Source: Candidatus Udaeobacter sp.
GTDB lineage: Bacteria > Patescibacteriota > Patescibacteriia > Magasanikbacterales > GWA2-37-8
DNA length: 64,000 nt
Direction of reading: 5' to 3'
NCBI GenBank assembly: GCA_035473115.1
Contig: DATION010000001.1
Span: 461-64,460, forward strand
Shown: in pieces, positions 12,558 to 44,708 of the stretch
Layout of the letters: each line of letters starts with the position of its first letter
Numbering within the stretch: the stretch's first letter is position 1
Translations under genes and position numbers: made by a program
The notes under the pieces: generated by a model
Told to the model about the DNA's origin: nothing
The model's database searches: none
What the model saw: the letters and a program-made list of their open reading frames with translations, nothing else

Positions 12558-13883
12558 CTACTGGAAGATCACCGAGATGATCTTGGCCGGATTGTTCTGG
12601 GGGAGGAACGTCCCGTTGCCCACTTGGCCGGAAGATCCGTTGCCTTCACACCAGACACTCGTTTCCCAGTTCACCGGAGACGTGCTGGTGAGAGCATCGC
12701 TCAATTCGGAGCACTGAGTGTGGCCGCCACCAGAGACTGCGACGTAGCCTCTGTTTTGAGTCGCCGGCAAGGGCGGCATGCCCGAAGCCAGCGTGGCGGA
12801 AGTCTTGTCGATCATCGTCAGGTCTCCGAGCTGACGATTGTTATTGTAACCCCAGCACCACAAGTGCGGAGGAAACTTGGGAGAAACCGGATCCTGCTTC
12901 GAAACGCAGGAGTGGTTCTGGCCCAGTTTGTCACCCACCCGCGCGAGAGACGTGCCACTGGGCAGTCCCAACACGAGCGCCGGCGAGGTCTGATCAACTC
13001 TGTTGCCATTGCCGACCTGTCCATAGAAATTGTAGCCCCAGCAGCGCAGAAGGTCATCTGAGAAGCCCAGCCCGCAGGTATGCGATCCGCCTGCGGAAAT
13101 TGAGATGAAGTTCTGCAGAACTCTGGTCGGCCGTGGCTGGGACACAAAGCCGCCGATTCCGAGCTGGCCATGGTCATTGTCTCCCCAGCAGTACGTTACC
13201 CCGGTGGCAAGATCCATGACCACGCATGCGTGCTGTGGACCTGCCGTCCAACTGTAGAAGCCGCCCTGAACGGTGGTGGTAAGATTGCCAACTCCGTTCG
13301 GGTTCACGACAGGCGTCGGCAGGTTCTTCAGGCCGCTGAAGGTGCCGATGCCAAGCTGGCCGTTGGTGTTCTCACCCCAACAACGGAGTTGGTAGGTGAT
13401 CGGGTTCACCGTGGATGTCACGATCTCGGCGCAGGTGTAGTTGCCGGCGGCGGTAACCCAGACCACATTGCTCATGACCCGGGTCGGGGTAGCCTGGTTG
13501 GTAAAGTTACCAATCCCGAGCTGCCCTTCGAGGTTCCGGCCCCAGCAGTAGAGGTCCTGGTTCCCGATGCCGCTGGGATCCTTGAGTCCGCAGGCGTGTT
13601 CGGCACCGACCGACACCCACGTCCAGACCAGGGTTGGCGTGGCTGGGATCGTCGCCAGTCCAGCAGCTACAGGCACAGAAGAAGGGCTGAACCCTCCCGT
13701 TCCGAGCTGTCCCTTGTCGTTGCTGCCCCAGCAGAGCATCTTGCCTGCCAGGCTACCCAGTCGAGTAGTCTGTTTGTACACATAGCATCCGCTCGTATCC
13801 CCCACGGATAGGCGGGATGCCTCTGCCGTGCTGGCAGAGAGCATCAGGAATAGACCGAGAATGATGTACAAGAGCCTTTGCAT
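12558..13883 (-). CDS. Secreted RCC1-repeat (beta-propeller) protein, GC-rich
   Basis: Signal peptide. Repeated CWGxNxxGQLG RCC1 motifs. GC visibly about 60% against roughly 37% flanks. Confidence 0.8.
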   Translation of the reverse strand: MQRLLYIILGLFLMLSASTAEASRLSVGDTSGCYVYKQTTRLGSLAGKMLCWGSNDKGQLGTGGFSPSSVPVAAGLATIPATPTLVWTWVSVGAEHACGLKDPSGIGNQDLYCWGRNLEGQLGIGNFTNQATPTRVMSNVVWVTAAGNYTCAEIVTSTVNPITYQLRCWGENTNGQLGIGTFSGLKNLPTPVVNPNGVGNLTTTVQGGFYSWTAGPQHACVVMDLATGVTYCWGDNDHGQLGIGGFVSQPRPTRVLQNFISISAGGSHTCGLGFSDDLLRCWGYNFYGQVGNGNRVDQTSPALVLGLPSGTSLARVGDKLGQNHSCVSKQDPVSPKFPPHLWCWGYNNNRQLGDLTMIDKTSATLASGMPPLPATQNRGYVAVSGGGHTQCSELSDALTSTSPVNWETSVWCEGNGSSGQVGNGTFLPQNNPAKIISVIFQ

Positions 13884-14037: not shown

Positions 14038-14427
14038 ATGAATAAAAACTCTTACTTTAACCTATTTTTTTGGCTAATAATCGGCCTAAGTCTAGCTTTT
14101 TATGCTAACTCAACAGCTTTAGCTGCAACTGCCAAGACTTCTGAAGCTAAACATATTGTTAAGCCTCAAGTTCAAAGTACTGCCAAAAAAACTGTTGTGA
14201 CTCAATTAAAAGACAAAACAGTTGCCTCGCCAGCCAAAAATACTTCCGTTGTTTCAACAAATAAGCCGGCAGATACTTGTATGCAAGCTATTGCTAAGGC
14301 TAATAAAGAATGCAAAGCTATTTCGCAAGGCTGCCACTCTTTTAGCGAAACTCCTCGCTGTAAATCGGCCGATCAAACTTGTGCCGATAAGCAGCAGGCT
14401 GCTATGGAGCTTTGCGGGGTTAAGTAG
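14038..14427 (+). CDS. Small secreted Cys-containing hypothetical protein
   Basis: Signal peptide, Lys/Thr-rich linker, C-terminal part with 6 Cys. Confidence 0.5.
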   Translation: MNKNSYFNLFFWLIIGLSLAFYANSTALAATAKTSEAKHIVKPQVQSTAKKTVVTQLKDKTVASPAKNTSVVSTNKPADTCMQAIAKANKECKAISQGCHSFSETPRCKSADQTCADKQQAAMELCGVK

Positions 14428-14482
14428 TCAAAGTTTAATAGTGAATAATTGGTTAGCCTGTCGTCATAAAATTAAATAATAA

Positions 14483-14518
14483 TAAAAAACAGCTCGTCTA
14501 GTAACGAGCTGTTTTTTA
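14483..14518. terminator. Bidirectional rho-independent terminator
   Basis: Perfect hairpin AACAGCTCGT ... ACGAGCTGTT with A6 and T6 flanks, between convergent genes. Confidence 0.7.
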
Positions 14519-14920
14519 TTATCTTTTGTAAGGATGCTTTTTCATGGCCTTTTTTGCTGTAGTTCCTGGTGGCGCGTTTCTGGTAAATACATCCTGGCCA
14601 ATAAGCATTGATTCCCAATTGTCGGCCGGATTAGTCGTTTGATTTAAAAGCCACATGGTAGTTAGAGTCTCCTGGCCGTTTATCATTTGTAACTGACCGC
14701 ACCAGGCAGTGGTTGATTGCAGATCCGAGGTGCTGTTGTTCCATACTACCACCATGCCGAAAGTTTGCCCGGCGGCTTGCACTGGATCAACCATGCCAGT
14801 CATTTGAAAAACACCTTGACCTCCGACCGCGCTTTGGTAGGTGCCGGTAAGCATCTGACCGCTGGCTTTAATGATTACTTTTGAACCAAGTTCGTTGTAC
14901 CACACGCCATTAATATTCAT
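14519..14920 (-). CDS. Avidin/streptavidin-family biotin-binding protein
   Basis: Alignable by eye to the streptavidin core: [51 protein letters not shown] versus [52 protein letters not shown]. Confidence 0.8.
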   Translation of the reverse strand: [133 protein letters not shown]

Positions 14921-15031
14921 AATTTTTTTAAAAATTAATTAAGTACGACAAAAACTAAATTAAATTAATATAAAATATAATTTTAGATCATAGCCCTCCT
15001 TTCTTAGTCAATTTTTGATAAATTTATAGAC

Positions 15032-15463
15032 TTATCTTTTTGGTTGCAGCATGGAAAATCGGTTGCCCTCGGTGTCCATAGCCGAAATCCAAAGCCCAAC
15101 ACCCGGTATATCTTGCGGCTCGTCGCTATGCTGGCCTGCTTCGTTCATTGTGCCAAGGATTTTCCCGCCAGCAGTTTTGACGTCAGTCATTGCTTGGTTA
15201 ATATCTTCAACGGCAATGACAACCGACGGAGCGTGTGATGAAGGGTTATCTGTTTTTTGATAAAATCCGCCGTTAATGTTACCTGGATTTTTTATCATTC
15301 CTTTGTCATCAGTTTCGGTGGTTTGCGCAACTACATAACTGCCCATGTCTAGCCCCATCATTTGGGTTTGCCAGCCAAAGACATTGGTATAAAAATCAAC
15401 CATCCGTTGCTTATCTTGGTAGCCCATTTCAAAATGGACTACTGGGCTCATTTTTTTGTGCAT
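15032..15463 (-). CDS. VOC (glyoxalase/bleomycin-resistance) family protein
   Basis: VHFEMGY...FYTNVFGW N-terminus typical of the VOC/PhnB-like fold. Confidence 0.7.
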   Translation of the reverse strand: MHKKMSPVVHFEMGYQDKQRMVDFYTNVFGWQTQMMGLDMGSYVVAQTTETDDKGMIKNPGNINGGFYQKTDNPSSHAPSVVIAVEDINQAMTDVKTAGGKILGTMNEAGQHSDEPQDIPGVGLWISAMDTEGNRFSMLQPKR

Positions 15464-15511
15464 AAATTTTATTTAAAATTAATTAAAGTTTATTTTATTA
15501 TAGCAAAAGAA

Positions 15512-15940
15512 TTAGGAATGCGCCTTCTTCATATATTGATACGATCTCTTGATAAGAGACGCAAGCACTTTTTCATCAACATCAGATAGTTTGTTGATAT
15601 ACAAACAGCCACCGATGCCAGCACTTGTTTTATATTTTCCCAGTTTGCCAAGTAACTCGTGGCTATCCTTATTGCCGTGCATGATATAAAGTGTAAGGTT
15701 TTGTTTTCGTGGAGAGAAACCAGTTAACATCCAGTCTCCTTCTTGGGCGCTTCTGTCGGATTTATAATGATACTTGCCGAAACCAACAATACTTGTTCCC
15801 CAGATGACCGCTTTTTCACCGGTAACCTGCTCAAATATTTTAAGCAGCGCAAAACCATCTGTCCGTTTTTCTTTGGGTCCAATGGAGTTGAGAAATTTTT
15901 TAACGCTTGTTTTAGTTGCTTTGGTTTTTAATTCAGCCAT
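15512..15940 (-). CDS. DUF1801 (YdhG-like) domain protein
   Basis: Overall pattern including FGKYHY is typical of DUF1801. Confidence 0.6.
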   Translation of the reverse strand: MAELKTKATKTSVKKFLNSIGPKEKRTDGFALLKIFEQVTGEKAVIWGTSIVGFGKYHYKSDRSAQEGDWMLTGFSPRKQNLTLYIMHGNKDSHELLGKLGKYKTSAGIGGCLYINKLSDVDEKVLASLIKRSYQYMKKAHS

Positions 15941-15946
15941 ATAATT

Positions 15947-16237
15947 TTAACGATGAGGGCAGCCTGCCCAACAACAGGGTCGACGCATACCTTTACGCAT
16001 CTTATCAAGACCAACTGTTATACGCCGGTCTCTGGTTTCAGCTTGCTTGGCAGATGTCACCCAACAAATCCATTCATTGCGGGCAAGCGGCGTAATATCA
16101 TCCCACACCGACAGCGCCTTGGGGTCAGAAGCAAGGGCTTTCCGAAAATCTGGTGGGAGTTTATGCTTGCTTGTTCGTAACTCTCCATGGCGAGCGGAGG
16201 CGGATGGTACACTGATAGAAATTTCTTTTTTGATCAT
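15947..16237 (-). CDS. YdeI/OmpD-associated family protein
   Basis: C-terminal WICWVTSAKQAETRDRRI matches the family pattern W(I)xxAKrxETRxrRI. Confidence 0.6.
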   Translation of the reverse strand: MIKKEISISVPSASARHGELRTSKHKLPPDFRKALASDPKALSVWDDITPLARNEWICWVTSAKQAETRDRRITVGLDKMRKGMRRPCCWAGCPHR

Positions 16238-16247
16238 ATGTTTATCA

Positions 16248-16514
16248 TTATCTTTTGTTCCGCCCGTATAAAAACCATCCTATTAAAATGATAGCTGATA
16301 TTATAGCGCCAATAATATTAGGTATGATTATAGGGGTGTTTTTTATCTCAAACCCGTACAGTATCCAGATAAATGATCCAATAGTTGTTATAAAGTAGGT
16401 AGTAGCAGAAACGTCTCCGGCGCTTTTATTTCTGAATATTTTTATTGCTTGAGGAAGAGCTCCGAAGCCTAAAAAAATACCCGAGATTGTAGCCAAAATA
16501 GAAAGTATTGTCAT
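16248..16514 (-). CDS. SemiSWEET (PQ-loop) sugar transporter
   Basis: 88 aa, three TM helices, PQ motif (GALPQAIKIF). Confidence 0.8.
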   Translation of the reverse strand: MTILSILATISGIFLGFGALPQAIKIFRNKSAGDVSATTYFITTIGSFIWILYGFEIKNTPIIIPNIIGAIISAIILIGWFLYGRNKR

Positions 16515-16630
16515 ATTTAATTTATTATATCATATACAAAAAATAAACCTATAATAGGGTTTATTTTTGTTTTTGGCTCGCATACACGGACAGCTTCCGA
16601 ACTTTTTTATCTAAGAATTTAAACCTCCTT

Positions 16631-17116
16631 CTATCTCAGGTTTAAATTTTTCAGTCGCCACATCATTGCTTCGCGGCTCACCTGATATTGTTCAGACAAT
16701 TCTATCAACCGATCTTCATAAGAACCATCTAATTTTCTAAAGTCGTTTAATAGTAGTTGTTTGGGCATAAGTAAATTCGCAGCAAAATCATCCGCTCTTT
16801 TTTCAAAAATAGTTTTATCCGGACGATTATTGTTATCCCTATAGTCAATGGAGACGGCTGTAGTACTTTCTAAAAAGAAGTGGCCGAGTTCGTGGGCGAT
16901 AGTGAAGCGGCGTCTCGCCGGAGACTCCTCAGTATTAATACCCATAAGAGCGCCACCATTTTTGCGTATTAAAATACCAGAATATTCAACGCTGGGAGCG
17001 TAGCTGATCTGAATATTCATTTTTTCTGCAATCTGTTCGACAGGTACCGGTGCCTCAGTTACCTTAAAGTGGGTAAGAATTTTCCGAACTTTCGCTTGTA
17101 TAATTTGACTGGACAT
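16631..17116 (-). CDS. ImmA/IrrE-family metallopeptidase
   Basis: HEXXH motif (HELGHF). Confidence 0.8.
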   Translation of the reverse strand: MSSQIIQAKVRKILTHFKVTEAPVPVEQIAEKMNIQISYAPSVEYSGILIRKNGGALMGINTEESPARRRFTIAHELGHFFLESTTAVSIDYRDNNNRPDKTIFEKRADDFAANLLMPKQLLLNDFRKLDGSYEDRLIELSEQYQVSREAMMWRLKNLNLR

Positions 17117-17118
17117 AA

Positions 17119-17529
17119 CTATTTATTTACTTTACCAAAAATTTTCTCCGCCCACTCTGCCGCGTTCTCATCTTTCTTTTTTATATTTTCAACGTCTATT
17201 TGGCTAAGTTCATAGCCCTTTGGAATGTCTGGAAAAAAATCTTTAACTTCACACCCCAGGATTGTGGCAAGTTTCCAGAGAGTGACAGCATTAACATGAT
17301 TTTGGCCGTTTTCAAGCTGAGTCAAAGCGACACGGCTCACACCTAATTTATGAGCCACCACTTCGGCGGTCAGAAAACCACGAGAATTTCTGCGTATTTT
17401 TTTTATCTTCGCCCCGATCTCTTCTTTGACCGTTTGTTCAATGTCTTTCTTAACGTTAATTATAGCCGATCGATCAAGATTGGACAACTTGGGGACAGGA
17501 AGTATTGCAGGGTTACTTTTTGTTTTCAT
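17119..17529 (-). CDS. XRE-family HTH transcriptional regulator
   Basis: HTH_3 region (LTAEVVAHKLGVSRVALTQLENGQ). Co-oriented with, and immediately upstream of, the ImmA peptidase. Confidence 0.8.
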   Translation of the reverse strand: MKTKSNPAILPVPKLSNLDRSAIINVKKDIEQTVKEEIGAKIKKIRRNSRGFLTAEVVAHKLGVSRVALTQLENGQNHVNAVTLWKLATILGCEVKDFFPDIPKGYELSQIDVENIKKKDENAAEWAEKIFGKVNK

Positions 17530-17719: not shown

Positions 17720-17953
17720 ATGGCAAGGAATCAACAACACGTTGTACGACGCGATGAAGGGTGGGCGGTAAGAGGCGCTGGAAACTCCAGAGATACTGCG
17801 CATACCAAAACTCAAGGCAAAGCAATTGATATTGCACGAAACATTGCGATTAACCAAAAGGCGGAAGTGGTCATTCACGATCGGCACGGTAAAATTCGCG
17901 ATTCAGATTCTTACGGAAATGACCCAAGCAATATCAAGGATACTAAATTTTAA
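17720..17953 (+). CDS. DUF2188 family protein
   Basis: 77 aa with VVRRDEGWAVRGAGNSRDTAHTKTQGKAIDIARNIA...VVIHDRHGKIRDSDSYGNDP, the typical DUF2188 pattern. Confidence 0.65.
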   Translation: MARNQQHVVRRDEGWAVRGAGNSRDTAHTKTQGKAIDIARNIAINQKAEVVIHDRHGKIRDSDSYGNDPSNIKDTKF

Positions 17954-18653: not shown

Positions 18654-19147
18654 AAATCATAGTACGTATTAATGAAACACTTTATAAGCGCATGCTCGCT
18701 GATTTGAAGCGCTCACATCCAACCGCCTTTGAGCGAGTGGGTTTTGCTTTTGCAAAACAAGGCAAGGTGTCTAAAGAAGAGGTCCTTATCTTGTTTTGCG
18801 ACTACCTGTCATTACCAGATGGCTGTTATGTGGCTGATGAAAATGTAGGAGCGCAGATAAATTCAACCGGAATCAATATGGCGATGCAAAAAATTCTTGA
18901 CGAGCAGCAAGGCGCCTTCCATGTTCACCTGCATGATTGGCCGGGCAAGCCCAATTTGAGCTTAACTGATGTCGGCGGTATTTTACCTCTAATCCCAGGG
19001 TTTCAGGCTGTAGGGCCGCAACTGCCGCACGGTGTCCTTCTTCTTAGTCGAGACAGTGTAATTTGTTATGTTTGGCTTCCTGGTTCGGGCCAGCTATTGG
19101 CAGAAAAAATTACGATTGTAGGCAAACAAATGAAATTTTATGCTTGA
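18650..19147 (+). CDS. JAB/JAMM-family metalloprotease (deubiquitinase-like)
   Basis: HVHLHDWPGKPNLSLTD fits the JAMM HxH-x(7-8)-S-xx-D signature. Probable GTG start overlapping the upstream stop; start uncertain. Confidence 0.65.
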   Translation: MKIIVRINETLYKRMLADLKRSHPTAFERVGFAFAKQGKVSKEEVLILFCDYLSLPDGCYVADENVGAQINSTGINMAMQKILDEQQGAFHVHLHDWPGKPNLSLTDVGGILPLIPGFQAVGPQLPHGVLLLSRDSVICYVWLPGSGQLLAEKITIVGKQMKFYA

Positions 19148-19943
19148 TGAACAATATTCACGACAATCATTCCTGGGGGGTAGTGTTCAAAAAAGATTCC
19201 AGGCTGTCAAGGTTGCGATAATCGGTCTTGGGGGTGGCGGTTCGCATATAGCGCAACAATTAGCGCACTTGGGAATTTTGAATTATGTTTTATACGATCC
19301 GCAAACTATCGAACTATCCAACTTAAACAGGATGGTCGGAGCGCGCCGTTCTGATGTCGGTGCTTTAAAAATTTTAGTCGCACAAAGAATAATTTTAGAT
19401 ATTCAACCCAAGGCAAATGTCTATGTTGTTGCCGATCGTTGGCAAAAAATGCCTGAGCTTTTACGTGGATGTGATATTATTTTTGGATGCGTAGACACTT
19501 TTAAAGATAGGAATGAATTAGAAGCTAGCGCGAGGCGTTATCTCATTCCATACATTGATATCGGAATGGATATTTTTAAAATTGGCAATGAGCTTCCGCG
19601 AATGGTTGGGCAAGTAATTTTGTCATTACCTGGATCTCATTGTTTACGGTGTCTGGATTTTATTACCGAACAAAATTTGGGAAACGAGGCAAGTAACTAC
19701 GGGGCTGCTGGTGGTCGTCCGCAGGTCGTTTGGCCAAATGGTATCCTAGCTTCGTCGGCTGTGGGTCTTGCAGTGAGCATGATAACAGGGTGGAATGAAA
19801 CAAATAATTTTCCAATATATTTATCTTATGACGGTAACAGTATGTGCGTTACCCGACACATACGATTAGATTATGAGTTGCCAGAAAAATGTGAGCACTT
19901 TCCTCCCAGTAAGGTCGGTGAACCAGAATATAAGAATGTTTAG
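19140..19943 (+). CDS. E1-like ThiF/MoeB-family adenylyltransferase
   Basis: YSRQ...VAIIGLGGGGSHIAQQLAHLG Rossmann motif. CxxC (HCLRC). Overlaps the JAB gene stop. Confidence 0.8.
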   Translation: MLDEQYSRQSFLGGSVQKRFQAVKVAIIGLGGGGSHIAQQLAHLGILNYVLYDPQTIELSNLNRMVGARRSDVGALKILVAQRIILDIQPKANVYVVADRWQKMPELLRGCDIIFGCVDTFKDRNELEASARRYLIPYIDIGMDIFKIGNELPRMVGQVILSLPGSHCLRCLDFITEQNLGNEASNYGAAGGRPQVVWPNGILASSAVGLAVSMITGWNETNNFPIYLSYDGNSMCVTRHIRLDYELPEKCEHFPPSKVGEPEYKNV

Positions 19944-21059: not shown

Positions 21060-22298
21060 ATGCAATATTCAAATCTTTTCGGTAAAACTACTAAAAATGT
21101 TCAGGCAGATGCCGATAGCGCCAATGCCAAACTGCTTACTCAGGGCGGATTTGTGGATCAAGAAATGGCTGGTGTTTATACCTGGCTGCCTTTGGGTTTA
21201 AATGTTTTGCGCAAAGTAGAGCAGATTGTGCGTGAAGAAATGAATGCGCTGGGAGCTTTAGAAGTATTTATGCCAAGTTTGCAACCAAAAGAGTACTGGG
21301 AAAAAACCAAACGTTGGGAAAACGTAGATATTCTTTTTAAAATAAAATCACAAACTGAAAAAGATTATGCTTTGGGCTGTTCTCACGAAGAAGTGGTGAC
21401 TCCGCTCGTACAAAAATTTATTCATTCCTATAAAGAATTGCCGCTGGCTGTTTATCAGATAAACACTAAATTTAGAGATGAGCTGCGGGCAAAATCCGGC
21501 GTGTTGCGCGGACGAGAATTTCGGATGAAGGACATGTATAGCTTTCATACCACTCAGGAAGATTTAAATAATTTTTATCAGCGCACTTTGCAGGCTTATG
21601 TAAAAGTTTTTTCTCGCTGTGGTATAGAAGTCAAAGTTGTTCAGGCCAGCGGCGGCATATTTACTTCCAATATTAGTCATGAATTTCAAGCCATTACTCC
21701 GGCCGGCGAAGACGTATTGTTGGCTTGTGAAAAATGTTCCTTTGGTCAAAATATAGAAGTGGCCACTGTTAAAGAAGGCGACGCCTGTCCACAGTGCGGC
21801 GGAAAAATTATTAAAACCAAAGGCATTGAAGTCGGTAATATTTTTGATTTGGGAACTAAGTATAGTGACTCTTTTAAATTTGAAGTAAATAATGCGGAAG
21901 GAAAAACTCAAAGATTAATTATGGGTTGCTATGGAATCGGCACATCTCGTTTGGTCGGAGCAGTTGTGGAAACATTCCATGATGAAAAAGGAATTATCTG
22001 GCCAAAATCCGTAGCTCCATATCAAGTTCATTTGGTTTCTTTGGGAGCAGATGAGAACGTGCAGGTGGAAGCGGAAAAATTATATAACCAATTGTTAGAA
22101 AAAGGCATAGAAGTTTTGTGGGATGATCGAGACGCTTCAGCCGGAGCCAAATTAGCGGATGCGGATTTAATTGGTGTTCCAACCCGGCTGGTTATTTCCA
22201 AAAAAACTTTGGCCGATGACAGTGTTGAATTAAAAGAGAGAAATAAAAATGAAGCAGAGATGATAAAGATAAGCGAGTTGATGGAAAAGTTAAAATAA
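21060..22298 (+). CDS. proS: Proline--tRNA ligase (short form, no INS editing domain)
   Basis: Class II aaRS motifs and an anticodon-binding domain. 412 aa. Confidence 0.9.
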   Translation: MQYSNLFGKTTKNVQADADSANAKLLTQGGFVDQEMAGVYTWLPLGLNVLRKVEQIVREEMNALGALEVFMPSLQPKEYWEKTKRWENVDILFKIKSQTEKDYALGCSHEEVVTPLVQKFIHSYKELPLAVYQINTKFRDELRAKSGVLRGREFRMKDMYSFHTTQEDLNNFYQRTLQAYVKVFSRCGIEVKVVQASGGIFTSNISHEFQAITPAGEDVLLACEKCSFGQNIEVATVKEGDACPQCGGKIIKTKGIEVGNIFDLGTKYSDSFKFEVNNAEGKTQRLIMGCYGIGTSRLVGAVVETFHDEKGIIWPKSVAPYQVHLVSLGADENVQVEAEKLYNQLLEKGIEVLWDDRDASAGAKLADADLIGVPTRLVISKKTLADDSVELKERNKNEAEMIKISELMEKLK

Positions 22299-22461: not shown

Positions 22462-23244
22462 TCAGTAGGCGACTCGCCACCTATTCCAGTGGCGGTGCTT
22501 CTTGTACTGATCACCATCATGACCACGGCGCATTTTGCGAACGCCGTGGTATTTAGATTCGATAGCGATCATCTCATCTTTGGTCATACGGTAGTAGCGG
22601 TCAGCGAAGTCGCCGTACCGCTCCTCGATCTTGTCCATCTCCACCTGCCTGATCCAGGCCTCTTCCAGCTGATCACCCTGTAGCTCGGTGATCATGCCGT
22701 ACTCGATCAGCCCAGCGGTGGCACTGATCAGTACTGCATCGATCAGAGGCATGAATCCATGACGGAGAGCGTACAGCGCCTGCAGCGCCGAATCGAGGTA
22801 CTTCTTCTTGAAATCCTCGATCTGCATCTGGCGCAGTGTCTCCTTCCTGAACTCTTCCTCTGCTTGGCGCTCTCGCTCAGCCCGCTGCTTGCGATCTTCC
22901 ACCTCAGCCTTGAGTGTGGAGATCAGCAGCGGCATTTGGTTCACCCACCGCTCGAGCCCGTCCACTTGCGTGGGGATGGGTCGGGCGGCGAGCGCGCGAA
23001 CCTGATCTCGGAACTCGCTGTCTGCGTCCGTTCCGTGCGGACAGTGCGAAGCCAGGTTGAGAACCTGCTCCTTGAACTGTTCCGCCGATCGGACGAGTTC
23101 ACGGCGACGCAGTTCGCCGCTTCGCTCCAGTTCCTGGAGCTGTTGAGCGGCTTCAGCTGCAGCCCGTGCCTGTTGGGCGCGGAGGTGGGTGGTCGTGTAT
23201 GACGACGACCGGCTGCTGACGATGACTTCGACCTTGCGTGGCAT
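22462..23244 (-). CDS. GC-rich hypothetical protein, predicted coiled-coil
   Basis: 260 aa, GC visibly about 60%. AGGAG SD (ACAGGAGACATCAG) before the ATG. Consensus promoter upstream. Confidence 0.5.
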   Translation of the reverse strand: MPRKVEVIVSSRSSSYTTTHLRAQQARAAAEAAQQLQELERSGELRRRELVRSAEQFKEQVLNLASHCPHGTDADSEFRDQVRALAARPIPTQVDGLERWVNQMPLLISTLKAEVEDRKQRAERERQAEEEFRKETLRQMQIEDFKKKYLDSALQALYALRHGFMPLIDAVLISATAGLIEYGMITELQGDQLEEAWIRQVEMDKIEERYGDFADRYYRMTKDEMIAIESKYHGVRKMRRGHDGDQYKKHRHWNRWRVAY

Positions 23245-23444
23245 CTGATGTCTCCTGTTGAAGTTGCGGTTGCCCGCACTTCTTCAGGTTGAACACCATT
23301 TGCCATGACGTTGACGTGCGGGGGAAATTGTCTTTTGTACTTCCCCTTTATAACTTCCAGATCATGTTGGTTTTCTCCTTCTCGGGTGGTTTTCCCGCAA
23401 AAAATAGTTATGGATAATTAGCTTTTGCAGAAAAACAACTGTAA

Positions 23445-23473
23445 ATCTTAGCAGGAATATAGTTTTTTGTCAA
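23445..23473 (-). promoter_or_regulatory. Sigma-70-type promoter for the gene at 22462-23244
   Basis: Minus strand: TTGACA, 17-nt spacer, TAAGAT. Lies immediately downstream of repeat copy 2. Confidence 0.5.
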
Positions 23474-23481
23474 GATGGAAC

Positions 23482-23516
23482 AAAAAACAGCCTTTGATTA
23501 AAACGCTGTTTTTTGT
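23482..23516. repeat. 35-bp perfect direct repeat, copy 2 (terminator of the gene at 23566-24258)
   Basis: Identical 35-mer to 22321-22355. The flanks differ. Confidence 0.8.
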
Positions 23517-23565
23517 GTTGGCCACGACTCCCTCCGTGAGTCATGGCGGATGTTGTACAACTACT

Positions 23566-24258
23566 TCAGCCGCCCTTTTTTCCTCGGCCCCCGCGCGCTG
23601 CCGCGCGGTGAACTTTGGCTCTCGCTGCCTTGTAGGCAGCGTGGGCCTTGGCCCCCGCGCTTGTGCCCGTGCTGGACTGCTTCGGCTGGTTCTCCTCGAG
23701 CCACTTCTCGTCCTGACAGCCATCGGCCATGCAGAACTTGAAGGAGACGGGGATCACTGCCTGGCAGCCCTGGCCAGAGCATCGGTGTCCGCAGTCCGAA
23801 CAGTAGTTCGGACCTTCGACTGGGAGTTCCGCGCCGCATCCATTCCCTTTGCAGAGTTTGGTAGTTGGCGCGAAGCTCTTGCATCCTTGGCAGAGCGGGT
23901 ACCATGTCGGGATCTGCCGACCACATCCACCCTTGCATGGGTGAATGCAGTCGTCACAGAGACCGAATCGTTTCCCGACCCGCACCTGGTTGGTGCATTG
24001 AGTGCCAGTTTCCGGATGTTCCCGGTTGCGGCACTGCTGGGTCTGGACAACGACTCGATCGGCCTTGGGTGGCGGTGCAGACTTCATGATGGTTGGTTCG
24101 GGCGTTGTTGCATCGCCCTCCTCCATCACAGCCGTGTGGATGGTCGCCTGTGGCGAGGCCGCTGGCGCCTCGCAGTTGGCGACTGCCTGGACAGGCTGGG
24201 TCTGCATGAGCACAGCAGAGAGAACTTCTTCCAGAACGTTGACGAGATCAGTGAGCAT
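23566..24258 (-). CDS. GC-rich Cys-rich hypothetical protein (multiple CxxC pairs)
   Basis: Start placed at MLTDL (24258), which has an AGGAGA SD 6 nt upstream. The ORF track extends it to 24303. CDDC, CQGC, CSDC and related pairs suggest zinc-ribbon-like modules. Confidence 0.45.
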   Translation of the reverse strand: MLTDLVNVLEEVLSAVLMQTQPVQAVANCEAPAASPQATIHTAVMEEGDATTPEPTIMKSAPPPKADRVVVQTQQCRNREHPETGTQCTNQVRVGKRFGLCDDCIHPCKGGCGRQIPTWYPLCQGCKSFAPTTKLCKGNGCGAELPVEGPNYCSDCGHRCSGQGCQAVIPVSFKFCMADGCQDEKWLEENQPKQSSTGTSAGAKAHAAYKAARAKVHRAAARGGRGKKGG

Positions 24259-24516
24259 GAGAATCTCCTCGTGGGATGTAGTGAACGGGAATGAACCGCA
24301 CACTACTTCCCTGAGAGATCATCTCGTGATCACTAGGTTGATGTGCGGTAGATATTCACAAGCATAAAGCTTCAACGAAAATTTGGTTGTCGTTCCATGA
24401 TCCCCTCCGTAGGTAATTGTACAATGAACGCGGAAACGGCCGTCCGAAGGACAGTTATTCCGACGGAAAGAATTTTTTCCTTTCCCTAGGAACAACTTTC
24501 ATATGAGTAATAAAAG

Positions 24517-33920: not shown

Positions 33921-34007
33921 GTTTAAGTAAAATTTACCTAAAACTAAGTGCATCGTTTTATTTTTTATGGTATAATAAAAACCAATAAAGAAAGCCACTT
34001 TATTTTT

Positions 34008-37000
34008 ATGAAGAGGGGACAAATTTTTAGTTTATACCCAGTTCTCTTCAAGAGAAAATTAAAGAGATTATTTTTGTTGTTTAAAGAAAAATATAATCCG
34101 CATTTAATAATTATAAAAAAGAAATTTCATGTTACGGTGGCGGTAATTTTACTGACAGTAATTTTGGTAAATTTATTTCAATTTTGGTCAGTGCCGATAG
34201 TTCAGGGTGCTACCTATACTTTTGTGCAAAGAGATTGGAGCGGAGGAGTTAGTAATTCTGTAATTGTTCATCCTGATAATCAAACCGGTTGGAATAGTTT
34301 TTCTACCAGCACAAATACCTTTACATCAGGAACCACCACAGTCTCTATCGCCAGCAGCACATACAGTTCTACTGACGACGGCACTTTTTCATCCACTGGC
34401 AGCGCAACTGGCGGCGGTTTTAGCAACGGTGCAACTTCCACTACTTCTATATCAGGCAGCGGCAGCTCTGCCTCCATTAAATTATCCGGTAGCACTACAG
34501 CGGTAAATCGTGTTACTGCCACAACTACAATGACTGGTGCTTTTTATCACGGAGGTGGTCAGATGGTTGGTGCTGCTGGATCTGATTATTTATATATTAT
34601 TGAAGGAGGTAATCGAGCTGCCCCACTGCGTCGTTTGACTATCTCAACTGCTGCTACTTCCAGTTTGGCCACTTATACCTATGCGTATTTTGGCGCTCAA
34701 TTGCTTTGGAATGGCAGTGATGATTATATTTATTTAGCTGAAGGGCAAAATGATAAATTTGATCGTTATTCAATATCAGGTAATTCATGGACTTCAATGG
34801 CTAATTTTCCGGCATCTTTACCAACTGATGTTTCAGAAACTGCTGCTTTACGTTACAACACAGAAGATTACATTTATTTTTTTAGAGGCAGCAGATTTGC
34901 TGATTTTTACCGTTACTCAATCAGCGGCAACAGTTGGTCTTCACTAACCTCATTACCAATAGTAGCTGGTTATGGTATTCAGGCAACAAGAGATGCAAAC
35001 AGCGATAGTATATATGTTTTACCTGCCAATGGTACTAATTTTTATCGCTATTCTATCGCTGGAGATTCGTGGACATCTATGGCAGCTGTTCCTTTATCTT
35101 TTGGTACTACTACAAATGCCGGTATTTTGCATGATGAAGGCAGTGATTATATTTATCTTTTAGTCGGAGATCATCTGTATAGGTATTCAATTAGTGGTAA
35201 CTCCTGGACAACTATGGCTGACGCTTCGTCGGTAAATCCTGATTTTGGTACAACATTATTGCATACTGCCGGCGAAGACACAATTTATGTGACTGGCCAA
35301 TGGGATTGTTGTGCTTCTGTGAGGGTATGGGCATATTCTATTAGCGGCGACAGCTGGACACAGTATGCTATAGTTTCAAACCATAGTGGTGGTTATGGTT
35401 CGCCAAATAAAACAGCTTTTCGTCGTACTTCTGATGAGTCTTTTTATTTTATTACGGCTGCTGGTGGAGATAGTGAAGTGTTCAAATATACAATTAGTCA
35501 AACGATATATAATTCTTCTGGCAACTTTACATCTGCCAGCCTGGATTTAGGGGTTGCCAAAATGAATTCTTTGTCTTGGACCAGCACAACTCCGTCCGGA
35601 GTTGGGAGTAATTCAATCCAATTCCAACTAGCTGCCAATAATGATAACAGTACTTGGAATTATGTTGGTCCGGATGGCACAAATTCTACATTTTTTACTA
35701 GTAACGGCACAACTTCTTTTCCTTCATCTCTGCTAAACAAAAGATATTGGCGGTATAAAGCATTTTTAACTACTGCTGATACCACTGTTTCGCCATCGTT
35801 AGACAGCGTTACTTTTTCTTATTCCTCTTACGCAACCTCTAGCTCTTTAATTTCCTCTATATACGATACGGTTGATCCAACAAATGTTTTGGCCAGCATT
35901 GGTTGGAGCCCATTTTTGCCAACTAGCACTACTATTAAATTTCAACTGCGCACCGGATCTAGCACCTCCAGTATAAACTCGGCCACCTGGGTTGGTCCGG
36001 ATGGTACAGCCTCCACTTTTTTTACTAATAGTTCCGGAGAGACTACCACTTCCACTATGCGTGATGGATCCGGTGATAGATATTTCCAGTACAAGGCTTT
36101 CTTACAAACCACAAATCCTGCATTTACGCCGGTCCTTTCCAGCGTTACTAGCACCTATGTAGTTAATGCTAATCCGGAAATTCAAAATGTTTCCGCCAGT
36201 GAAAATGGTAGTGGTGTAGTAACTATTACTTATCAAGCCAGAGATCCTGATACTAGCACAGGTACTGTTAATCCGGGCTTTGTCAGCTCCACGTTTGAAT
36301 ACTTAGACGCCAACGGCGCTTATCAAACTATACCTGCCAATCAGCTTTCAGCCGGAGCAAATAGTAATTTGGCTGTTCAAGGAGTTAACTGGACTACCTC
36401 TACTGTTAGTTGGACATTGCCGTCCGGGCTTAATATTGCCGCTAGTCGGATAAGAGTAACGGTAAATGATAATGAAGCGGCGAATAACACCGCTGCCTCT
36501 TCTTCGCCTACCTTTCAGATAGATAGCGTTGCTCCATCGGCAACATCAGTAATTGTGGATGGTTCCCAAACACCAGCTCTGCTTACTTTTAATGTCAGTG
36601 ATAGTTCTACTTTATTCATGAAAGTTTCGGAAAATAGTACCTTATCAGATGTTTCTACCTGGTCAGCTTTTACAGCCACTACCACATTTACACTGAGTTC
36701 TAATCCAGATACAGTTTATGCTCAGTTTAAAGATGTTTATGGTAATACCTCAACTATTGTTCATGCCACGACACCGCAAACCCCAAATAGTTTTATCGTT
36801 CAGGATAATTCCAATGTTTTAAATGGCGCTACTGATTATCGTCTTTTTGTAGCTTGGAGAGTAGTGGCTACTCCTAGTCCGGGCTTTGGCAGCTATAAAG
36901 TTTATCGATCTGAGGATCAATCCACCTGGACTTTAATTTCAACCATTAGTTCTATCAGTGATAATTTCGTTACTGACAATACCACTGTTTCAAATACTCT

Positions 37001-40000
37001 TTACTATTATAAAGTAAAAACTGTTGATGCGGATGGCAACACTTCAGTTTTTTCTTCCATTGTAAATGGGCGCGCTAATGGCGCCCAAGATGCTGGTGAA
37101 GGTGGAGGCGGGTCAGGTGTAGGCAGCGATCCGGTTATTACTTCGGTCGCCACTTCTTCACCTACTCCATCTTCTATCACCATTACTTGGGATACGGATG
37201 CTTTATCTAATTCTGTTGTTGGTTTTTCTACTACCCCAGGAAATTTTACCGATAATACCGTGACGGTTAATTCCATGGTAAATAATTCTTCCGGAGTAGG
37301 AAATCACAATGTGGTTTTGGGAGGACTTGTTCCAAATACTACTTATTATTTTAATGTAAAATCTGTTTCCGCCAGCAACGCTTCTTCAACCGATAGTAAT
37401 GGCGGTAATGGTTATATTTTTACCACTCCTTCCGGCCCGACTATTACCGGGGTTTCGGCCGTAGAAGTTAATAATACTTTTGCCAGAGTAGTTTGGAGTA
37501 CTTCAGAAAATTCTAACAGTTCAGTAATTTATTCCACTTCCACAAGCTTAACCAACTCTGTAACCACCAGTTCTGTTCAAATGGGCACTGCCCATGATAT
37601 GACTTTAACTGGTTTAACAGCCGGTACGAGATATTATTTTTACGTTCAATCGGTCAACGGATCCGGAGTAACTTCCACAGATAAAAATTTAGTAGGTGGC
37701 ATACTTCAATATTTTAATTTGGCGACTACTCTAGACAGCACCGGTCCGACAATTTCTTCCATTGCCACCACTACCAGCGATAACTCGGCTAACATTACTT
37801 GGAACACAAACGAAAGCGCCGATTCGCAAATTATTTATGGTCTTACGACTAGTTATGGCTCCACTACTACTTTAGATAGTACTTTTACTACTCAACATTT
37901 AATGACTCTCTCGGGACTTAGTTCTTCAACAGCTTATCATTTCAAAATATTATCCAGAGATAAAAATAATAATTTAACAGCTTCAGCTGATCAATTAATA
38001 ATTACTTCCGCTACTCCCGATACTACCGCGCCAATTATTACTAGTGTTGCCACCTCTAGCGTATCTCTGACCGGCGCCACTGTTACTTGGACAACAGACG
38101 AGTTAGCTTCCTCAATTGTTGAATACGGTATTACCACTTCTTCATATAGCAGTCTGGCTGGTTCAAATTCCGATTCAGTCACTTCGCATTCTGTTTCTTT
38201 AGCTAGTCTGAGCGGCAATACTGCTTATTATTTTAGAGTTAGATCAGCTGATTCGGCCGGCAATTCGGCCATGAGTGATAATAGCGGCCAGGGCTGGCAA
38301 TTTGTTACCGTAGCCGATACCACTGGTCCGGTAATTTCGGATGTAAATCTTTTGGTCAATGATACTTCGGTAGCAATTTCTTGGACAACCAATGAGCCGG
38401 CTAGTTCAGAAGTTGATTATGATACAACTTCCAGTACATTCGGTTTTTCTAGCTCCACTGCTTCACTCGTTACCAACCATACAATTACTATTACCGGTTT
38501 AACAACTAATGTTACTTATTTCTTCCGCCTAAAATCCACGGATAGTGCTGGTAATACTACTATAGATAATAATGGCGGTGCTGCTTATAGCTTTACTACT
38601 CAACAGACTCCGGGCTTGGTTAGAGTAGGTGGCGGCGGTGGCGGAGCGCCAAGAGATACCGATCCTCCGGAAATTAGCAATCTTAGCATAACCGATATTG
38701 CTCCTAGCTCAGCTAGTGTTATTTGGCAAACCAGTGAAGATGGTAATTCTTTGGTACGGTTTGGATCAAGTATTAAATATGGAACTTTAACCGGTAATGA
38801 TTCAGAACTGCTTACTTCCAAACATAATGTCAGTCTGTTTGATTTAAAACCAGGACAAACCTATCATCTAAGAGCCGTAACTTATGATGCTGCCGGTAAT
38901 CGCGCCGAATCAATCGATAAAACTTTTTCAACTTTGAATTCAGACGGTTCGGAAGTTACCCCAAGCACTAGCACCGAAAAGACACCGGAAGAAGAGGTGA
39001 CTCCGGAAACCCAATTTATATCCGATTCTTTGCAGAAGGCTTCAAGTCAATCTTTGCAAAAGTTCCTAGCTGATATAGCTTCTAATCCATTCTTGAAAAA
39101 TATTCCTGAAGATAAGTTTATTCAAGCTATTTTCGAAATGACCAGTAAAGTAGTTGAAGCTCCGACCATCGTTGGAGTTAAACCGACAGTAGAAGTAAAA
39201 GGAACCTCCGCTCTTATTAGGTGGTCGACAGATAAAAAATCTTCCTCTGAGTTAAACTATGCCAGAGATGTTGATTATAAGCCTGCTTCTAATAACGCTT
39301 ACACTAACGCAGCTGTTAATCCGGATGAATTTAGTGTTAACCATTCTGTACAATTAACTGGTCTTGATCCGGGAGTCTTATATCACTTTAAAGTAAGTTC
39401 AAAAGGCTTAATTGGTCCGGCAGCTGTCAGCGGTGACTATACTTTCTTAACCACCGGTGATCTGCCGATAATTTCCAATATTAAAGTGGCCAGACCAACT
39501 GAATCGCAGTCTTCTATCATAGTTGATTGGAGAACCAATATTCCGACTGCCGGTACCGTAGAATATAAGAATGTTAAATCCGGACAATCCTTGACCCAAG
39601 GAGACGAAACATTGCTCGTTAATCATGAAGTTGCTCTCAAAGGTTTGGAGGGCGGCGTAAATTATACTTTAGTTATCAAAGCTAGAGATGAATTCAAAAA
39701 CGAAGTTGCCAGTTTGCCGATAACATTCTCCACTCTTTTAGATAAGATAAGTCCGGTAATAACTAAACTTTCTTCCGAATCAACTTTATACCCGGGTAAA
39801 GATTCTAAAGTTCAAACTATTATTTCTTGGGAGACAGATGAGCCGGCTACTTCTCAAGTGTTCTATCAGGAAGGTTTGGCTGGTGATAATGTAATTTCGT
39901 TGCCGCTAGACACCTCGCTTAATACTCGCCACGTGGTGGTAATAACCAAATTTAAACCTGGCACAGTTTATAAATATTGGGTAGAATCAAAGGATCTGGC

Positions 40001-40124
40001 AGGCAATAATGGAAAGTCAGAAATATTTTCTATTCTTACGCCGCAGCAAAAAGAAACGATTGTTGATATTATTATTAATAATTTCCAATCAGTGTTTGGC
40101 TGGACAAAGAATATAGGTTTGTAG
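34008..40124 (+). CDS. Giant (about 2,038 aa) cell-surface protein: N-terminal TM anchor, Kelch-like beta-propeller repeats, then an array of fibronectin-III-like domains
   Basis: Start at the ATG downstream of an extended -10 (TGGTATAAT, about 33963-33971). Repeated YRYSISGNSWT blades. Many FN3-like units (VTWTTDE...S.VEYG..., ARVVWSTSENS...). Gly runs. Ser/Thr-rich. Confidence 0.7.
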   Translation: MKRGQIFSLYPVLFKRKLKRLFLLFKEKYNPHLIIIKKKFHVTVAVILLTVILVNLFQFWSVPIVQGATYTFVQRDWSGGVSNSVIVHPDNQTGWNSFSTSTNTFTSGTTTVSIASSTYSSTDDGTFSSTGSATGGGFSNGATSTTSISGSGSSASIKLSGSTTAVNRVTATTTMTGAFYHGGGQMVGAAGSDYLYIIEGGNRAAPLRRLTISTAATSSLATYTYAYFGAQLLWNGSDDYIYLAEGQNDKFDRYSISGNSWTSMANFPASLPTDVSETAALRYNTEDYIYFFRGSRFADFYRYSISGNSWSSLTSLPIVAGYGIQATRDANSDSIYVLPANGTNFYRYSIAGDSWTSMAAVPLSFGTTTNAGILHDEGSDYIYLLVGDHLYRYSISGNSWTTMADASSVNPDFGTTLLHTAGEDTIYVTGQWDCCASVRVWAYSISGDSWTQYAIVSNHSGGYGSPNKTAFRRTSDESFYFITAAGGDSEVFKYTISQTIYNSSGNFTSASLDLGVAKMNSLSWTSTTPSGVGSNSIQFQLAANNDNSTWNYVGPDGTNSTFFTSNGTTSFPSSLLNKRYWRYKAFLTTADTTVSPSLDSVTFSYSSYATSSSLISSIYDTVDPTNVLASIGWSPFLPTSTTIKFQLRTGSSTSSINSATWVGPDGTASTFFTNSSGETTTSTMRDGSGDRYFQYKAFLQTTNPAFTPVLSSVTSTYVVNANPEIQNVSASENGSGVVTITYQARDPDTSTGTVNPGFVSSTFEYLDANGAYQTIPANQLSAGANSNLAVQGVNWTTSTVSWTLPSGLNIAASRIRVTVNDNEAANNTAASSSPTFQIDSVAPSATSVIVDGSQTPALLTFNVSDSSTLFMKVSENSTLSDVSTWSAFTATTTFTLSSNPDTVYAQFKDVYGNTSTIVHATTPQTPNSFIVQDNSNVLNGATDYRLFVAWRVVATPSPGFGSYKVYRSEDQSTWTLISTISSISDNFVTDNTTVSNTLYYYKVKTVDADGNTSVFSSIVNGRANGAQDAGEGGGGSGVGSDPVITSVATSSPTPSSITITWDTDALSNSVVGFSTTPGNFTDNTVTVNSMVNNSSGVGNHNVVLGGLVPNTTYYFNVKSVSASNASSTDSNGGNGYIFTTPSGPTITGVSAVEVNNTFARVVWSTSENSNSSVIYSTSTSLTNSVTTSSVQMGTAHDMTLTGLTAGTRYYFYVQSVNGSGVTSTDKNLVGGILQYFNLATTLDSTGPTISSIATTTSDNSANITWNTNESADSQIIYGLTTSYGSTTTLDSTFTTQHLMTLSGLSSSTAYHFKILSRDKNNNLTASADQLIITSATPDTTAPIITSVATSSVSLTGATVTWTTDELASSIVEYGITTSSYSSLAGSNSDSVTSHSVSLASLSGNTAYYFRVRSADSAGNSAMSDNSGQGWQFVTVADTTGPVISDVNLLVNDTSVAISWTTNEPASSEVDYDTTSSTFGFSSSTASLVTNHTITITGLTTNVTYFFRLKSTDSAGNTTIDNNGGAAYSFTTQQTPGLVRVGGGGGGAPRDTDPPEISNLSITDIAPSSASVIWQTSEDGNSLVRFGSSIKYGTLTGNDSELLTSKHNVSLFDLKPGQTYHLRAVTYDAAGNRAESIDKTFSTLNSDGSEVTPSTSTEKTPEEEVTPETQFISDSLQKASSQSLQKFLADIASNPFLKNIPEDKFIQAIFEMTSKVVEAPTIVGVKPTVEVKGTSALIRWSTDKKSSSELNYARDVDYKPASNNAYTNAAVNPDEFSVNHSVQLTGLDPGVLYHFKVSSKGLIGPAAVSGDYTFLTTGDLPIISNIKVARPTESQSSIIVDWRTNIPTAGTVEYKNVKSGQSLTQGDETLLVNHEVALKGLEGGVNYTLVIKARDEFKNEVASLPITFSTLLDKISPVITKLSSESTLYPGKDSKVQTIISWETDEPATSQVFYQEGLAGDNVISLPLDTSLNTRHVVVITKFKPGTVYKYWVESKDLAGNNGKSEIFSILTPQQKETIVDIIINNFQSVFGWTKNIGL

Positions 40125-43520: not shown

Positions 43521-44708
43521 ATGGCTGAGTTTATACGAAACAAGCCACACTTGAACATTGGTACTATCGGTCACGTTGACCATGGTAAAACAACCTTGAC
43601 TGCTGCTATTTTGGCAGTTTTACGCTCTCGCGGAGGCGCTGCTTCCAATAAGGGTGTTGATGATTTAGATAAATCTCCAGAATCTAAAGCTCGCGGTATC
43701 ACTATCTCCACCGCTCACGTAGAATACGAAACTGACGCTAGACACTACGCTCACGTAGACTGTCCTGGTCATGCCGATTATGTTAAAAACATGATTACTG
43801 GTGCTGCTCAAATGGATGGCGCCATCTTAGTTGTTTCTGCAGCTGACGGCCCAATGCCTCAGACCAGAGAACACATCTTGTTAGCTCGCCAGGTTGGTGT
43901 GCCTTACATTGTTGTATTCTTAAACAAAGTTGACCAAGTTTCTGATCCAGAGTTAGTAGATTTAGTTGAAGACGAAGTTCGTGATCTATTAAAGAAATAT
44001 GGCTTCCCTGGAGATACTACCACTATAATCCGTGGTTCCGCTTTGCAAGCTTTACAAAATCCTACCGATGAAGCTGCTGCCAAACCAGTTATGGATTTAA
44101 TGGCTGCTTGTGACGCAATTCCTCAGCCTACTCGTGATATTGATAAACCTTTCTTAATGCCTATCGAAGACGTATTCTCTATTGAAGGCCGCGGTACAGT
44201 AGTTACCGGTCGTTTAGAGAGAGGTATTATCCGCATCAATGATGAAGCGGAAATCGTAGGTATGGCTGAAACTACATCAAAAACCGTTGTTACTGGTGTA
44301 GAAATGTTTAATAAACAATTAAAAGAAGGCCAAGCTGGTGATAACGTTGGTTTATTGCTCCGCGGTACCAAGAAAGAAGATGTAGAACGCGGTATGGTTA
44401 TTGCTAAACCTGGCAGTATTACTCCTCACACTGAATTTGATGCTCAAGTTTATATCTTAACTAAAGAAGAAGGCGGCAGACATAAACCTTTCTTCAAAGG
44501 TTATAAACCTCAATTCTATATCCGCACTACAGATGTAACCGGAGAAGTAGAATTAGCAGCCGGTACCGAAATGGTTATGCCTGGCGACACAGTTTCTTTC
44601 AAAGTTAAATTGATTACTCCGGTTGCGATGGAAGAAAAAATGAACTTTGCTATCCGCGAAGGTGGCAAAACTGTAGGTTCAGGAGTAGTAACTTCAATCA
44701 CAAAATAA
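43521..44708 (+). CDS. tuf: Elongation factor Tu
   Basis: [25 protein letters not shown] motifs. 395 aa. Confidence 0.95.

Follow-up and report, generated by a model that had tools for sequence, protein, structure and literature searches.

An avidin-family gene with a conserved His-Pro tail in a probable Patescibacteria genome

The avidin gene, its product and its host

The stretch of DNA analyzed here (64,000 nucleotides of contig DATION010000001.1, hereafter the window) carries an avidin-family gene on the minus strand at 14519..14920, which runs from an ATG start to a TAA stop, encodes 133 amino acids and was identified from the open reading frame (ORF) list together with Pfam and PDB matches. 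Judging from its sequence, we consider it probable that this gene codes for a functional biotin-binding protein of the streptavidin/tamavidin type in a genome of the Patescibacteria (candidate phyla radiation, CPR), and that it works by the mechanism proposed below. The protein belongs to a known family and is already auto-annotated, its NCBI record being named ‘MAG TPA: avidin/streptavidin family protein [Candidatus Udaeobacter sp.]’, yet it is a new member of that family. What is newly added here is the CPR host with a correction of the taxon label, a clade-specific operon with a GMC oxidoreductase gene, and a His-Pro tail that is found family-wide.

The Pfam Avidin profile (PF01382) matched residues 2–113 over its full length (profile positions 1–116 of 116; E 6e-28, 98 bits against a cut-off of 24), and a phmmer search of the PDB matched 178 distinct avidin-family sequences, with streptavidin and streptavidin-C1 at E ~1e-21. 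By BLASTP the window protein is 39% identical to streptavidin and 39% identical to tamavidin 2, the sequence of the latter having been checked against PDB 2ZSC. A sequence-only reading of this DNA had aligned the product by eye along the whole streptavidin core, and Pfam, PDB, a structural model and a residue-by-residue comparison all agree with it; the motifs it quoted are all present, namely WYNELGS (residues 7–13), WNNS (60–63) and TAWCGQ (71–76), with further blocks at 24–34 and 88–114, and so is the short basic C-terminal tail. Because the score against the streptavidin equivalog NCBIfam NF047623 (91.6 bits) falls below the cut-off of 300, the protein is a family member and not a streptavidin orthologue. 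The dN/dS value of 0.068 against an 80%-identical orthologue in the related locus L002 indicates that the gene is under strong purifying selection.

An eight-stranded antiparallel avidin beta-barrel is predicted for the core (residues 2–114; 14579..14917, minus strand). The AlphaFold2 (AF2) model, made with a 37-sequence alignment, has a predicted local distance difference test score (pLDDT) of 91.4 and a predicted template-modeling score (pTM) of 0.83, and contains eight predicted strands (the first at E5–9 and the last at E105–113), a short helix at 98–103 and a C-terminal helix at 119–128. Its top Foldseek matches are streptavidins, with template-modeling (TM) scores of 0.81–0.91 against core streptavidin and a root-mean-square deviation of 1.4 Å.

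In the HMMER and BLASTP alignments, 15 of the 16 biotin-contact residues of streptavidin are identical in the window protein (window residue first): N9=N23, L11=L25, S13=S27, Y28=Y43, S30=S45, V32=V47, G33=G48, W60=W79, S69=S88, T71=T90, W73=W92, W90=W108, L92=L110, W102=W120, and D110=D128. The key contacts are thus kept in a proper alignment, and the pocket-lining Trp residues noticed by eye in the C-terminal block (W90 and W102), as well as W60 and W73, all find their streptavidin counterparts. W120 of streptavidin is the Trp donated by the neighboring subunit in tetrameric avidins. Its equivalent W102 is conserved, and the protein, whose only Cys is Cys74, lacks the two Cys residues that characterize dimeric avidins.

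An in-frame TAA lies 7 codons 5′ of the ATG at 14939–14941, within an AT-rich upstream region of 111 bp (14921..15031, minus strand), the frame reading TAA-TTA-ATT-TTT-AAA-AAA-ATT. An N-terminal extension or signal peptide is therefore excluded, and both an alternative start and a hidden signal peptide were rejected on the same ground, leaving no alternative start from which a Sec or Tat signal could be read; a Tat motif was not found in the window protein either. The close relatives P0002–P0005 (71–87% identity) all begin at the core as well, so that the stop codon and the alignments agree with the earlier description of a tamavidin-like protein that starts directly at the core.

These observations bear on the role that was first suggested for the protein, that of a classical antimicrobial biotin scavenger exported to starve neighboring microbes. 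Secreted streptavidin and streptavidin-C1 do act in this way, being antifungal or antibacterial via biotin depletion (PMC7924230; PMC8033661), and the window protein has an intact pocket and is encoded in an accessory region, beside a small protein that looks secreted. However, no secretion signal supports such a role; the core is the starting point of all proteins of the clade and of 76% of the nearest representatives, and no secretion-system gene recurs beside subfamily members. We regard export for this purpose as distinctly unlikely.

No Shine-Dalgarno (SD) sequence was found adjoining the avidin ATG, which is normal for this genome because only 13 of the 77 window ORFs have an SD-like motif. 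No sigma-70-type promoter passed the promoter scan upstream of the gene. An isolated but strong SD-like GGAGG (14995–14999, minus strand) is located 3 nt before a two-codon mini-ORF (ATG ATC TAA; 14983–14991), ~70 nt 5′ of the avidin start; this element (14983–14999, minus strand) is not conserved in the related loci L002 or L003, and most genes of the genome are without SD motifs.

The contig, 65 kb in length, is publicly labeled as Candidatus Udaeobacter sp., Udaeobacter being a verrucomicrobial genus (Verrucomicrobiota). The EF-Tu encoded in the window (43521–44708) is 97% identical to that of ‘Parcubacteria group bacterium Gr01-1014_13’ and 91–92% identical to those of Candidatus Magasanikbacteria, and the prolyl-tRNA synthetase (ProRS; 21060–22298), encoded 6 kb from the avidin gene, matches those of Patescibacteria/Uhrbacteria at ~70–88% identity. 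In addition, the independent Logan assembly L001 (15.6 kb) joins the genes for ProRS and avidin with an RCC1-repeat gene and an MFS gene. Because both marker proteins are of Patescibacteria type and L001 joins one of them to the avidin gene, we assign the latter to a genome of the CPR and regard its public label as probably an error of binning or taxonomy. The sequence-only reading, which spoke of a reduced, episymbiont-like genome, is supported at the phylum level by these affinities. That label, together with several high-GC patches in the window, could also be taken to mean that the gene lies on a mis-binned or chimeric piece of non-CPR DNA, or is a decaying pseudogene. We consider such an artifact extremely improbable: the markers and the independent contig speak against the former, and the ORF is intact, has its own terminator and an SD-less leader matching the habit of the genome, and evolves under the constraint noted above.

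A signal-less subfamily and its His-Pro tail

Bacterial avidins had been called rare, which does not hold. In an exhaustive HMMER search, 763 clusters at 50% identity passed E≤1e-3; their number dropped to 236 with a limit of E≤1e-10 and to only 2 with E≤1e-30. A survey published in 2021 found bacterial avidins in 118 species, about half of them without a signal peptide (PMC8033661). The phyla covered by that survey were only Actinobacteria, Proteobacteria, Bacteroidetes, and one Synergistetes, and archaea were not included (PMC8033661). Among the nearest single-domain representatives with the WYNEL motif, 80 of 105 (76%) have ≤12 residues before it and are thus signal-less; the signal-less form is therefore the majority among the nearest relatives, which corrects the emphasis of the earlier reading. 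Near relatives are few, with only five sequences at ≥70% identity among 5.8 billion clustered proteins and nothing closer than 46–50% identity in a scan of JGI metagenomes. A scan of IMG/VR found no relative of the avidin, and a phage or viral origin was rejected on this ground.

In species-representative genomes, the signal-less subfamily occurs in Parcubacteria, Bacteroidota, Nitrospirota, Acidobacteriota, Chloroflexota, Actinomycetota, Myxococcota, Gemmatimonadota, and Eremiobacterota, and, among archaea, in Ca. Methanoperedens and Nitrososphaeraceae. The avidins of archaeal metagenome-assembled genomes (L015, L017, and L018 from Ca. Methanoperedens, and L022 from Nitrososphaeraceae) are 39–42% identical to the window protein, signal-less, and have an SHP tail. 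A second CPR avidin (L005/L006; GCA_039796615.1, Candidatus Parcubacteria bacterium) shows 53–55% identity and ends in an HPYRHW tail. It is annotated only as a hypothetical protein, with an annotated start that cuts off the N-terminus (123 aa versus a 137-aa ORF), and its gene adjoins multicopper oxidase and Cu-ATPase genes and parAB. Tandem proteins of 300–420 aa with two avidin domains, that is, natural ‘dual-chain’ avidins, were also seen (P0128, P0130, P0135, P0139, P0141, and others).

The C-terminal tail of the window protein (residues 115–133; 14522..14578, minus strand) consists of a predicted short helix (119–128) followed by HPYKR, as judged from the AF2 model, Foldseek and the relatives. 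It reads KKHPYKR and is conserved in P0002–P0004 and P0276. His129-Pro130 (14531..14536, minus strand) forms a conserved HP motif that tail statistics and the alignment to streptavidin make a candidate intrinsic ligand of the pocket. HP was found in 90 of 129 unique subfamily tails (70%), whereas among the 21,976 dipeptide positions of the cores it occurred only 7 times. Counted from the FTR that closes strand 8, the His comes 18–19 residues later in 68 of these 90 tails, and in 52 of the 90 a Ser directly precedes it. Natural tails with WSHP or SHPQ are present in P0164, P0212, P0268, P0175, P0181, and P0186, at L008:211-636, and at other loci among L006–L064.

The alignment places the HP of the subfamily on N152-P153 of streptavidin. 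In full-length streptavidin (2BC3), residues 150–153 fold back into the biotin site of their own chain (PMC3344845), and in streptavidin-C1 a ‘C-Lid’ helix and an ‘ECP’ occupy the protein’s own biotin site, only -NP- being common to these segments and streptavidin (PMC7924230). Furthermore, phage display with streptavidin as the target has led in all cases to His-Pro peptides, which bind the biotin pocket via S88, S45, and T90 (PMC6259150), and these three peptide-contacting residues are all conserved in the window protein.

The predicted structures point in the same direction, the model-based evidence on the tail consisting of pLDDT and Foldseek alignment lengths only. In the window model, strand 8 appears to be followed by a short helix (119–128) and then by X-Pro (H129-P130) at the aligned position, as in streptavidin (2BC3) and in the C-Lid/ECP of streptavidin-C1, and the model's longest alignments (130–132 columns) are with 7cq0 and 2bc3, in both of which the tail is included. 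For P0212, a canonical WSHP member, the 2bc3 chains A and B rank 1–2 and 7cq0 ranks 16, these again giving the longest alignments (146–152 columns), and the WSHP region of its AF2 model has a pLDDT of ~78–90. From the alignment of HP to N152-P153, the binding of His-Pro peptides and the Foldseek matches to tail-containing structures, we infer that the subfamily tail is homologous to the pocket-occupying tails of the streptavidins and serves, like them, as an intrinsic ligand; on this analysis, the tail with its conserved His-Pro resembles a lid built into the protein. No paper connecting natural avidin tails with HPQ was found in the literature searched, which is not proof of novelty.

Surroundings of the gene and the GMC oxidoreductase of sister loci

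A hairpin resembling a bidirectional intrinsic terminator (AAAAAACAGCTCGT...ACGAGCTGTTTTTT; 14479..14522, both strands) overlaps the avidin stop codon and is flanked by an A-run and, on the opposite side, by a T-run. It lies between that stop and a convergent gene (14038..14427, plus strand) for a 129-aa protein with a hydrophobic N-terminus and a Cys-rich C-terminus, which according to the ORF list and Pfam has no family match; a 61% homologue adjoins the avidin gene in L003. The terminator scan, which scored the hairpin on both strands, agrees with the earlier description of a small convergent gene behind a strong bidirectional terminator, the secreted look of its product (a signal-peptide-like N-terminus) being judged by eye. 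Beyond it lies the RCC1-repeat gene (12558..13883, minus strand; 59.7% GC, GC3 73%), assigned by Pfam and, by synteny with L003, located at the position of the GMC gene in sister loci. A tRNA-Ser of 91 nt predicted by ARAGORN inside this ORF (13672–13762, minus strand) is probably a false positive, having no support from Rfam at the gathering threshold.

The avidin gene ends a co-directional string of genes (15032..17529, minus strand), in which Pfam identifies, from its upstream end, genes for an HTH protein (17119–17529), a Peptidase_M78/CapP-like protein (16631–17116; PADLOC capP, E 1.3e-34), a PQ-loop/SWEET-like protein (16248–16514), OmdA (15947–16237), DUF1801 (15512–15940), and a protein of the glyoxalase/bleomycin-resistance fold (15032–15463). 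Across from the HTH gene, on the plus strand, is a DUF2188 gene (17720–17953) that PADLOC lists as candidate PDC-S16 (E 7e-32), and beyond it a ThiF/E1-like gene (19140–19943, plus strand). The HTH and Peptidase_M78 pair resembles the CapH/CapP defense regulators, and the HTH, Peptidase_M78, DUF2188, and ThiF genes may form a small regulated defense or stress module adjoining the avidin string. PADLOC gave no match for the avidin itself, nor for the 129-aa, glyoxalase, DUF1801, OmdA, RCC1, and GMC proteins, and membership of the avidin in an anti-phage defense system was rejected for this reason.

The avidin gene had been placed in a GC-elevated accessory island. Its GC content of 46.5% (86th percentile of the 77 ORFs) is indeed above the window mean of 40.6%, but the elevation is modest and the deviant gene is its RCC1 neighbor. 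The accessory character is supported by relatives with 79–84% identical ProRS, which have other genes around ProRS and no avidin; since gene order is not conserved there, the region is variable, although this does not give precise borders for an island. Integration at tRNA-Asn was rejected, a direct repeat of the tRNA end (att-like) not being found within 9–20.2 kb. Patches of 52–60% GC in this genome of ~40% GC were seen at 12558–13883 (the RCC1 gene), 22462–24294, and 61603–63724; the two ORFs at 22.4–24.3 kb have no Pfam match, and the RCC1 patch is an insertion and not a chimera, because it is reproduced at the same place in the independent assembly L001. Elsewhere in the window, a 2058-aa ORF (33948–40124, plus strand) has multiple repeats of the fibronectin-III, purple-acid-phosphatase-N, and Kelch-like types, and its product resembles the giant surface proteins that CPR genomes typically encode.

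In all three sequenced loci of the closest relatives, a signal-less GMC oxidoreductase of ~522 aa begins 4–5 nt after the avidin stop (L002:904-2475, L003:3637-5205, and L004:976-2541, each directly downstream of avidin). The contigs that carry it range from 38 to 62% GC, and the pair looks like a mobile two-gene operon of unassigned chemistry. The L003 locus is syntenic with the window, with homologues of the 129-aa protein (61%) and of a 282-aa ORF (57%), and carries the GMC gene where the window has the RCC1 gene. By tblastn, neither a GMC gene nor a remnant of one is present in the window, including downstream of avidin. It is therefore most likely that the GMC gene was lost in the window lineage and that the high-GC RCC1 gene occupies its position.

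Outside this clade the partnership does not recur. The GMC gene is absent at the 24 wider subfamily loci (L006–L029). When 92 flanking genes from 24 loci were assigned to Pfam families, each family occurred in three loci at most, and genes of biotin metabolism were not among them; the idea of a gene partner that recurs throughout the wider subfamily was rejected on the basis of this census. The GMC protein itself is of a generic choline/alcohol-oxidase type without an informative match.

A possible mechanism, its rivals and its meaning

Judging from the sequence comparisons, the protein is most likely a working, streptavidin-like cytoplasmic tetramer that sequesters free biotin and carries a self-gating C-terminal lid. 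It would assemble as a tetramer in the cytoplasm and capture free biotin there with very high affinity. After strand 8, the short helix and the basic tail would bring the His-Pro back over or into the biotin pocket, where it would serve as an intrinsic ligand of low affinity, mirroring the C-Lid/ECP of streptavidin and streptavidin-C1; free biotin would displace this lid, while bulky or weakly bound biotinylated proteins would be hindered. The most speculative step is that the protein forms a biotin sink harmless to its own cell. Fatty-acid synthesis was detected in no CPR group (PMC9166423), and a CPR cell thus probably needs little biotin. Such a sink might withhold biotin from a host or from competitors after lysis, by non-classical release, or by draining imported biotin.

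In its boldest form, the proposal is that, in the signal-less avidins of bacteria and archaea, a Strep-tag-like (W)SHP encoded in cis (KKHPYKR in the window protein) plugs the pocket until free biotin displaces it, giving an avidin that is compatible with the cytoplasm and ignores biotinylated proteins, which would serve a CPR episymbiont with little or no need of biotin as a sink against its host or competitors and which originally worked, in the window clade, with a co-translated GMC oxidoreductase. We offer this full version tentatively, as a possibility that may well prove wrong.

Several points weigh against the proposed mechanism. The one biotin contact that differs, N49 of streptavidin (a backbone contact to the biotin carboxylate), corresponds to Gly or to a one-residue deletion, and the L3,4 lid loop is shorter by one residue than that of streptavidin, so that the affinity for biotin could differ. 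The linker to HP in the window clade is shorter by 4–5 residues than in most of the subfamily (His index 14 versus 18–19), Lys replaces the usual Ser before the His, and the pLDDT is only ~70 for residues 121–130 of the window model; the reach of the tail into the pocket, and with it the role of an intrinsic ligand, is therefore less secure for the window protein. The pairing of avidin with a GMC oxidoreductase in the closest relatives hints at a function beyond simple sequestration. Finally, harmlessness due to CPR metabolism is not a general explanation, because the signal-less subfamily is also found in free-living bacteria that need biotin.

The pairing with the enzyme could mean that the barrel binds a ligand other than biotin, such as a GMC substrate or product, as a carrier or sequestering subunit, the window copy being an orphan after loss of the enzyme. 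The tight spacing of the two genes in L002, L003, and L004 on contigs of such different GC content, the synteny of L003 with the window, and the changes at N49 and in the L3,4 loop fit this reading. It is, however, difficult to reconcile with the 15 identical contacts, including the ureido-binding N, S, Y, and D, with the restriction of the GMC link to one clade, with purifying selection on the window copy although it has no GMC gene, and with the generic nature of the GMC protein, and we consider it very unlikely.

A cytoplasmic store or buffer, in which an auxotroph holds host-derived biotin for its own use and the HP tail aids release or exchange, would suit a signal-less, cytoplasmic protein. 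Many cofactor pathways are missing in CPR bacteria (PMC9166423), and a competing intrinsic ligand could lower the effective affinity. The off-rates of avidin-type proteins are extremely slow, however, and no release mechanism is known; no gene for BirA, BioY, or a carboxylase is linked to avidin in the window or at the 24 other loci, and fatty-acid synthesis, which CPR bacteria lack, is the main consumer of biotin. Storage thus seems rather unlikely to us, and sequestration by a self-gating tetramer is preferred. As candidates for the role of the protein, we infer a biotin sink against host or competitors, a biotin store, and a partner of the GMC chemistry.

The closest parallels among known systems are streptavidin (Streptomyces avidinii; 2BC3) and streptavidin-C1 (S. 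cinnamonensis; 7CQ0/7CPZ), which share with the window protein the eight-stranded barrel at 39% identity, the contacts including W120, and the short helix after strand 8 with an X-Pro at the aligned position, their own X-Pro segments plugging their biotin sites. Unlike these actinomycete proteins, the protein of the CPR host has neither a signal peptide nor an N-terminal extension, has His-Pro in place of Asn-Pro after a linker 4–5 residues shorter, and differs at N49 and L3,4 as described above. Tamavidin 2 (Pleurotus cornucopiae; 2ZSC) is likewise signal-less, with WYNEL a few residues after Met, and its tail (TAPTEQQIAHAQLHCRAPRLK) has a similar length and composition with an X-Pro near the aligned position; it is a fungal protein, its tail has Ala-Pro and not His-Pro, and at 39% identity it is no closer to the window protein than streptavidin is. 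In bradavidin (Bradyrhizobium), C-terminal residues (the Brad-tag) are also an intrinsic ligand of the pocket, and this tail stabilizes the apo protein and hinders large biotinylated ligands from binding (PMC3344845). Bradavidin is secreted, however, and its tail, of unrelated sequence (GSEKLSNTK), enters the pocket of the neighboring subunit. Strep-tag II and other HPQ peptides share the His-Pro core, and the WSHP or SHPQ of some subfamily tails comes near to Strep-tag II (WSHPQFEK), but those peptides were selected in vitro whereas the avidin-tail motif is encoded in cis, and the window protein has KKHPYKR and not SHPQ.

Avidins are workhorse reagents, and yet their natural roles are poorly understood. 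The gene described here extends the avidin family to the CPR/Patescibacteria, and with the related loci the signal-less subfamily now spans ten or more phyla of bacteria as well as two lineages of archaea. The public Ca. Udaeobacter label of the contig is worth correcting. Being small, Cys-poor and signal-less and having a His-Pro tail, such an avidin might find use as a soluble scaffold that can be expressed in the cytoplasm and whose pocket gates itself. Should the tail indeed plug the pocket, a family-wide (S)HP would explain the repeated recovery of His-Pro in in vitro selections on streptavidin. In ecological terms, the sequestration of biotin by a protein of an episymbiont points to a way of manipulating the host that can be tested.

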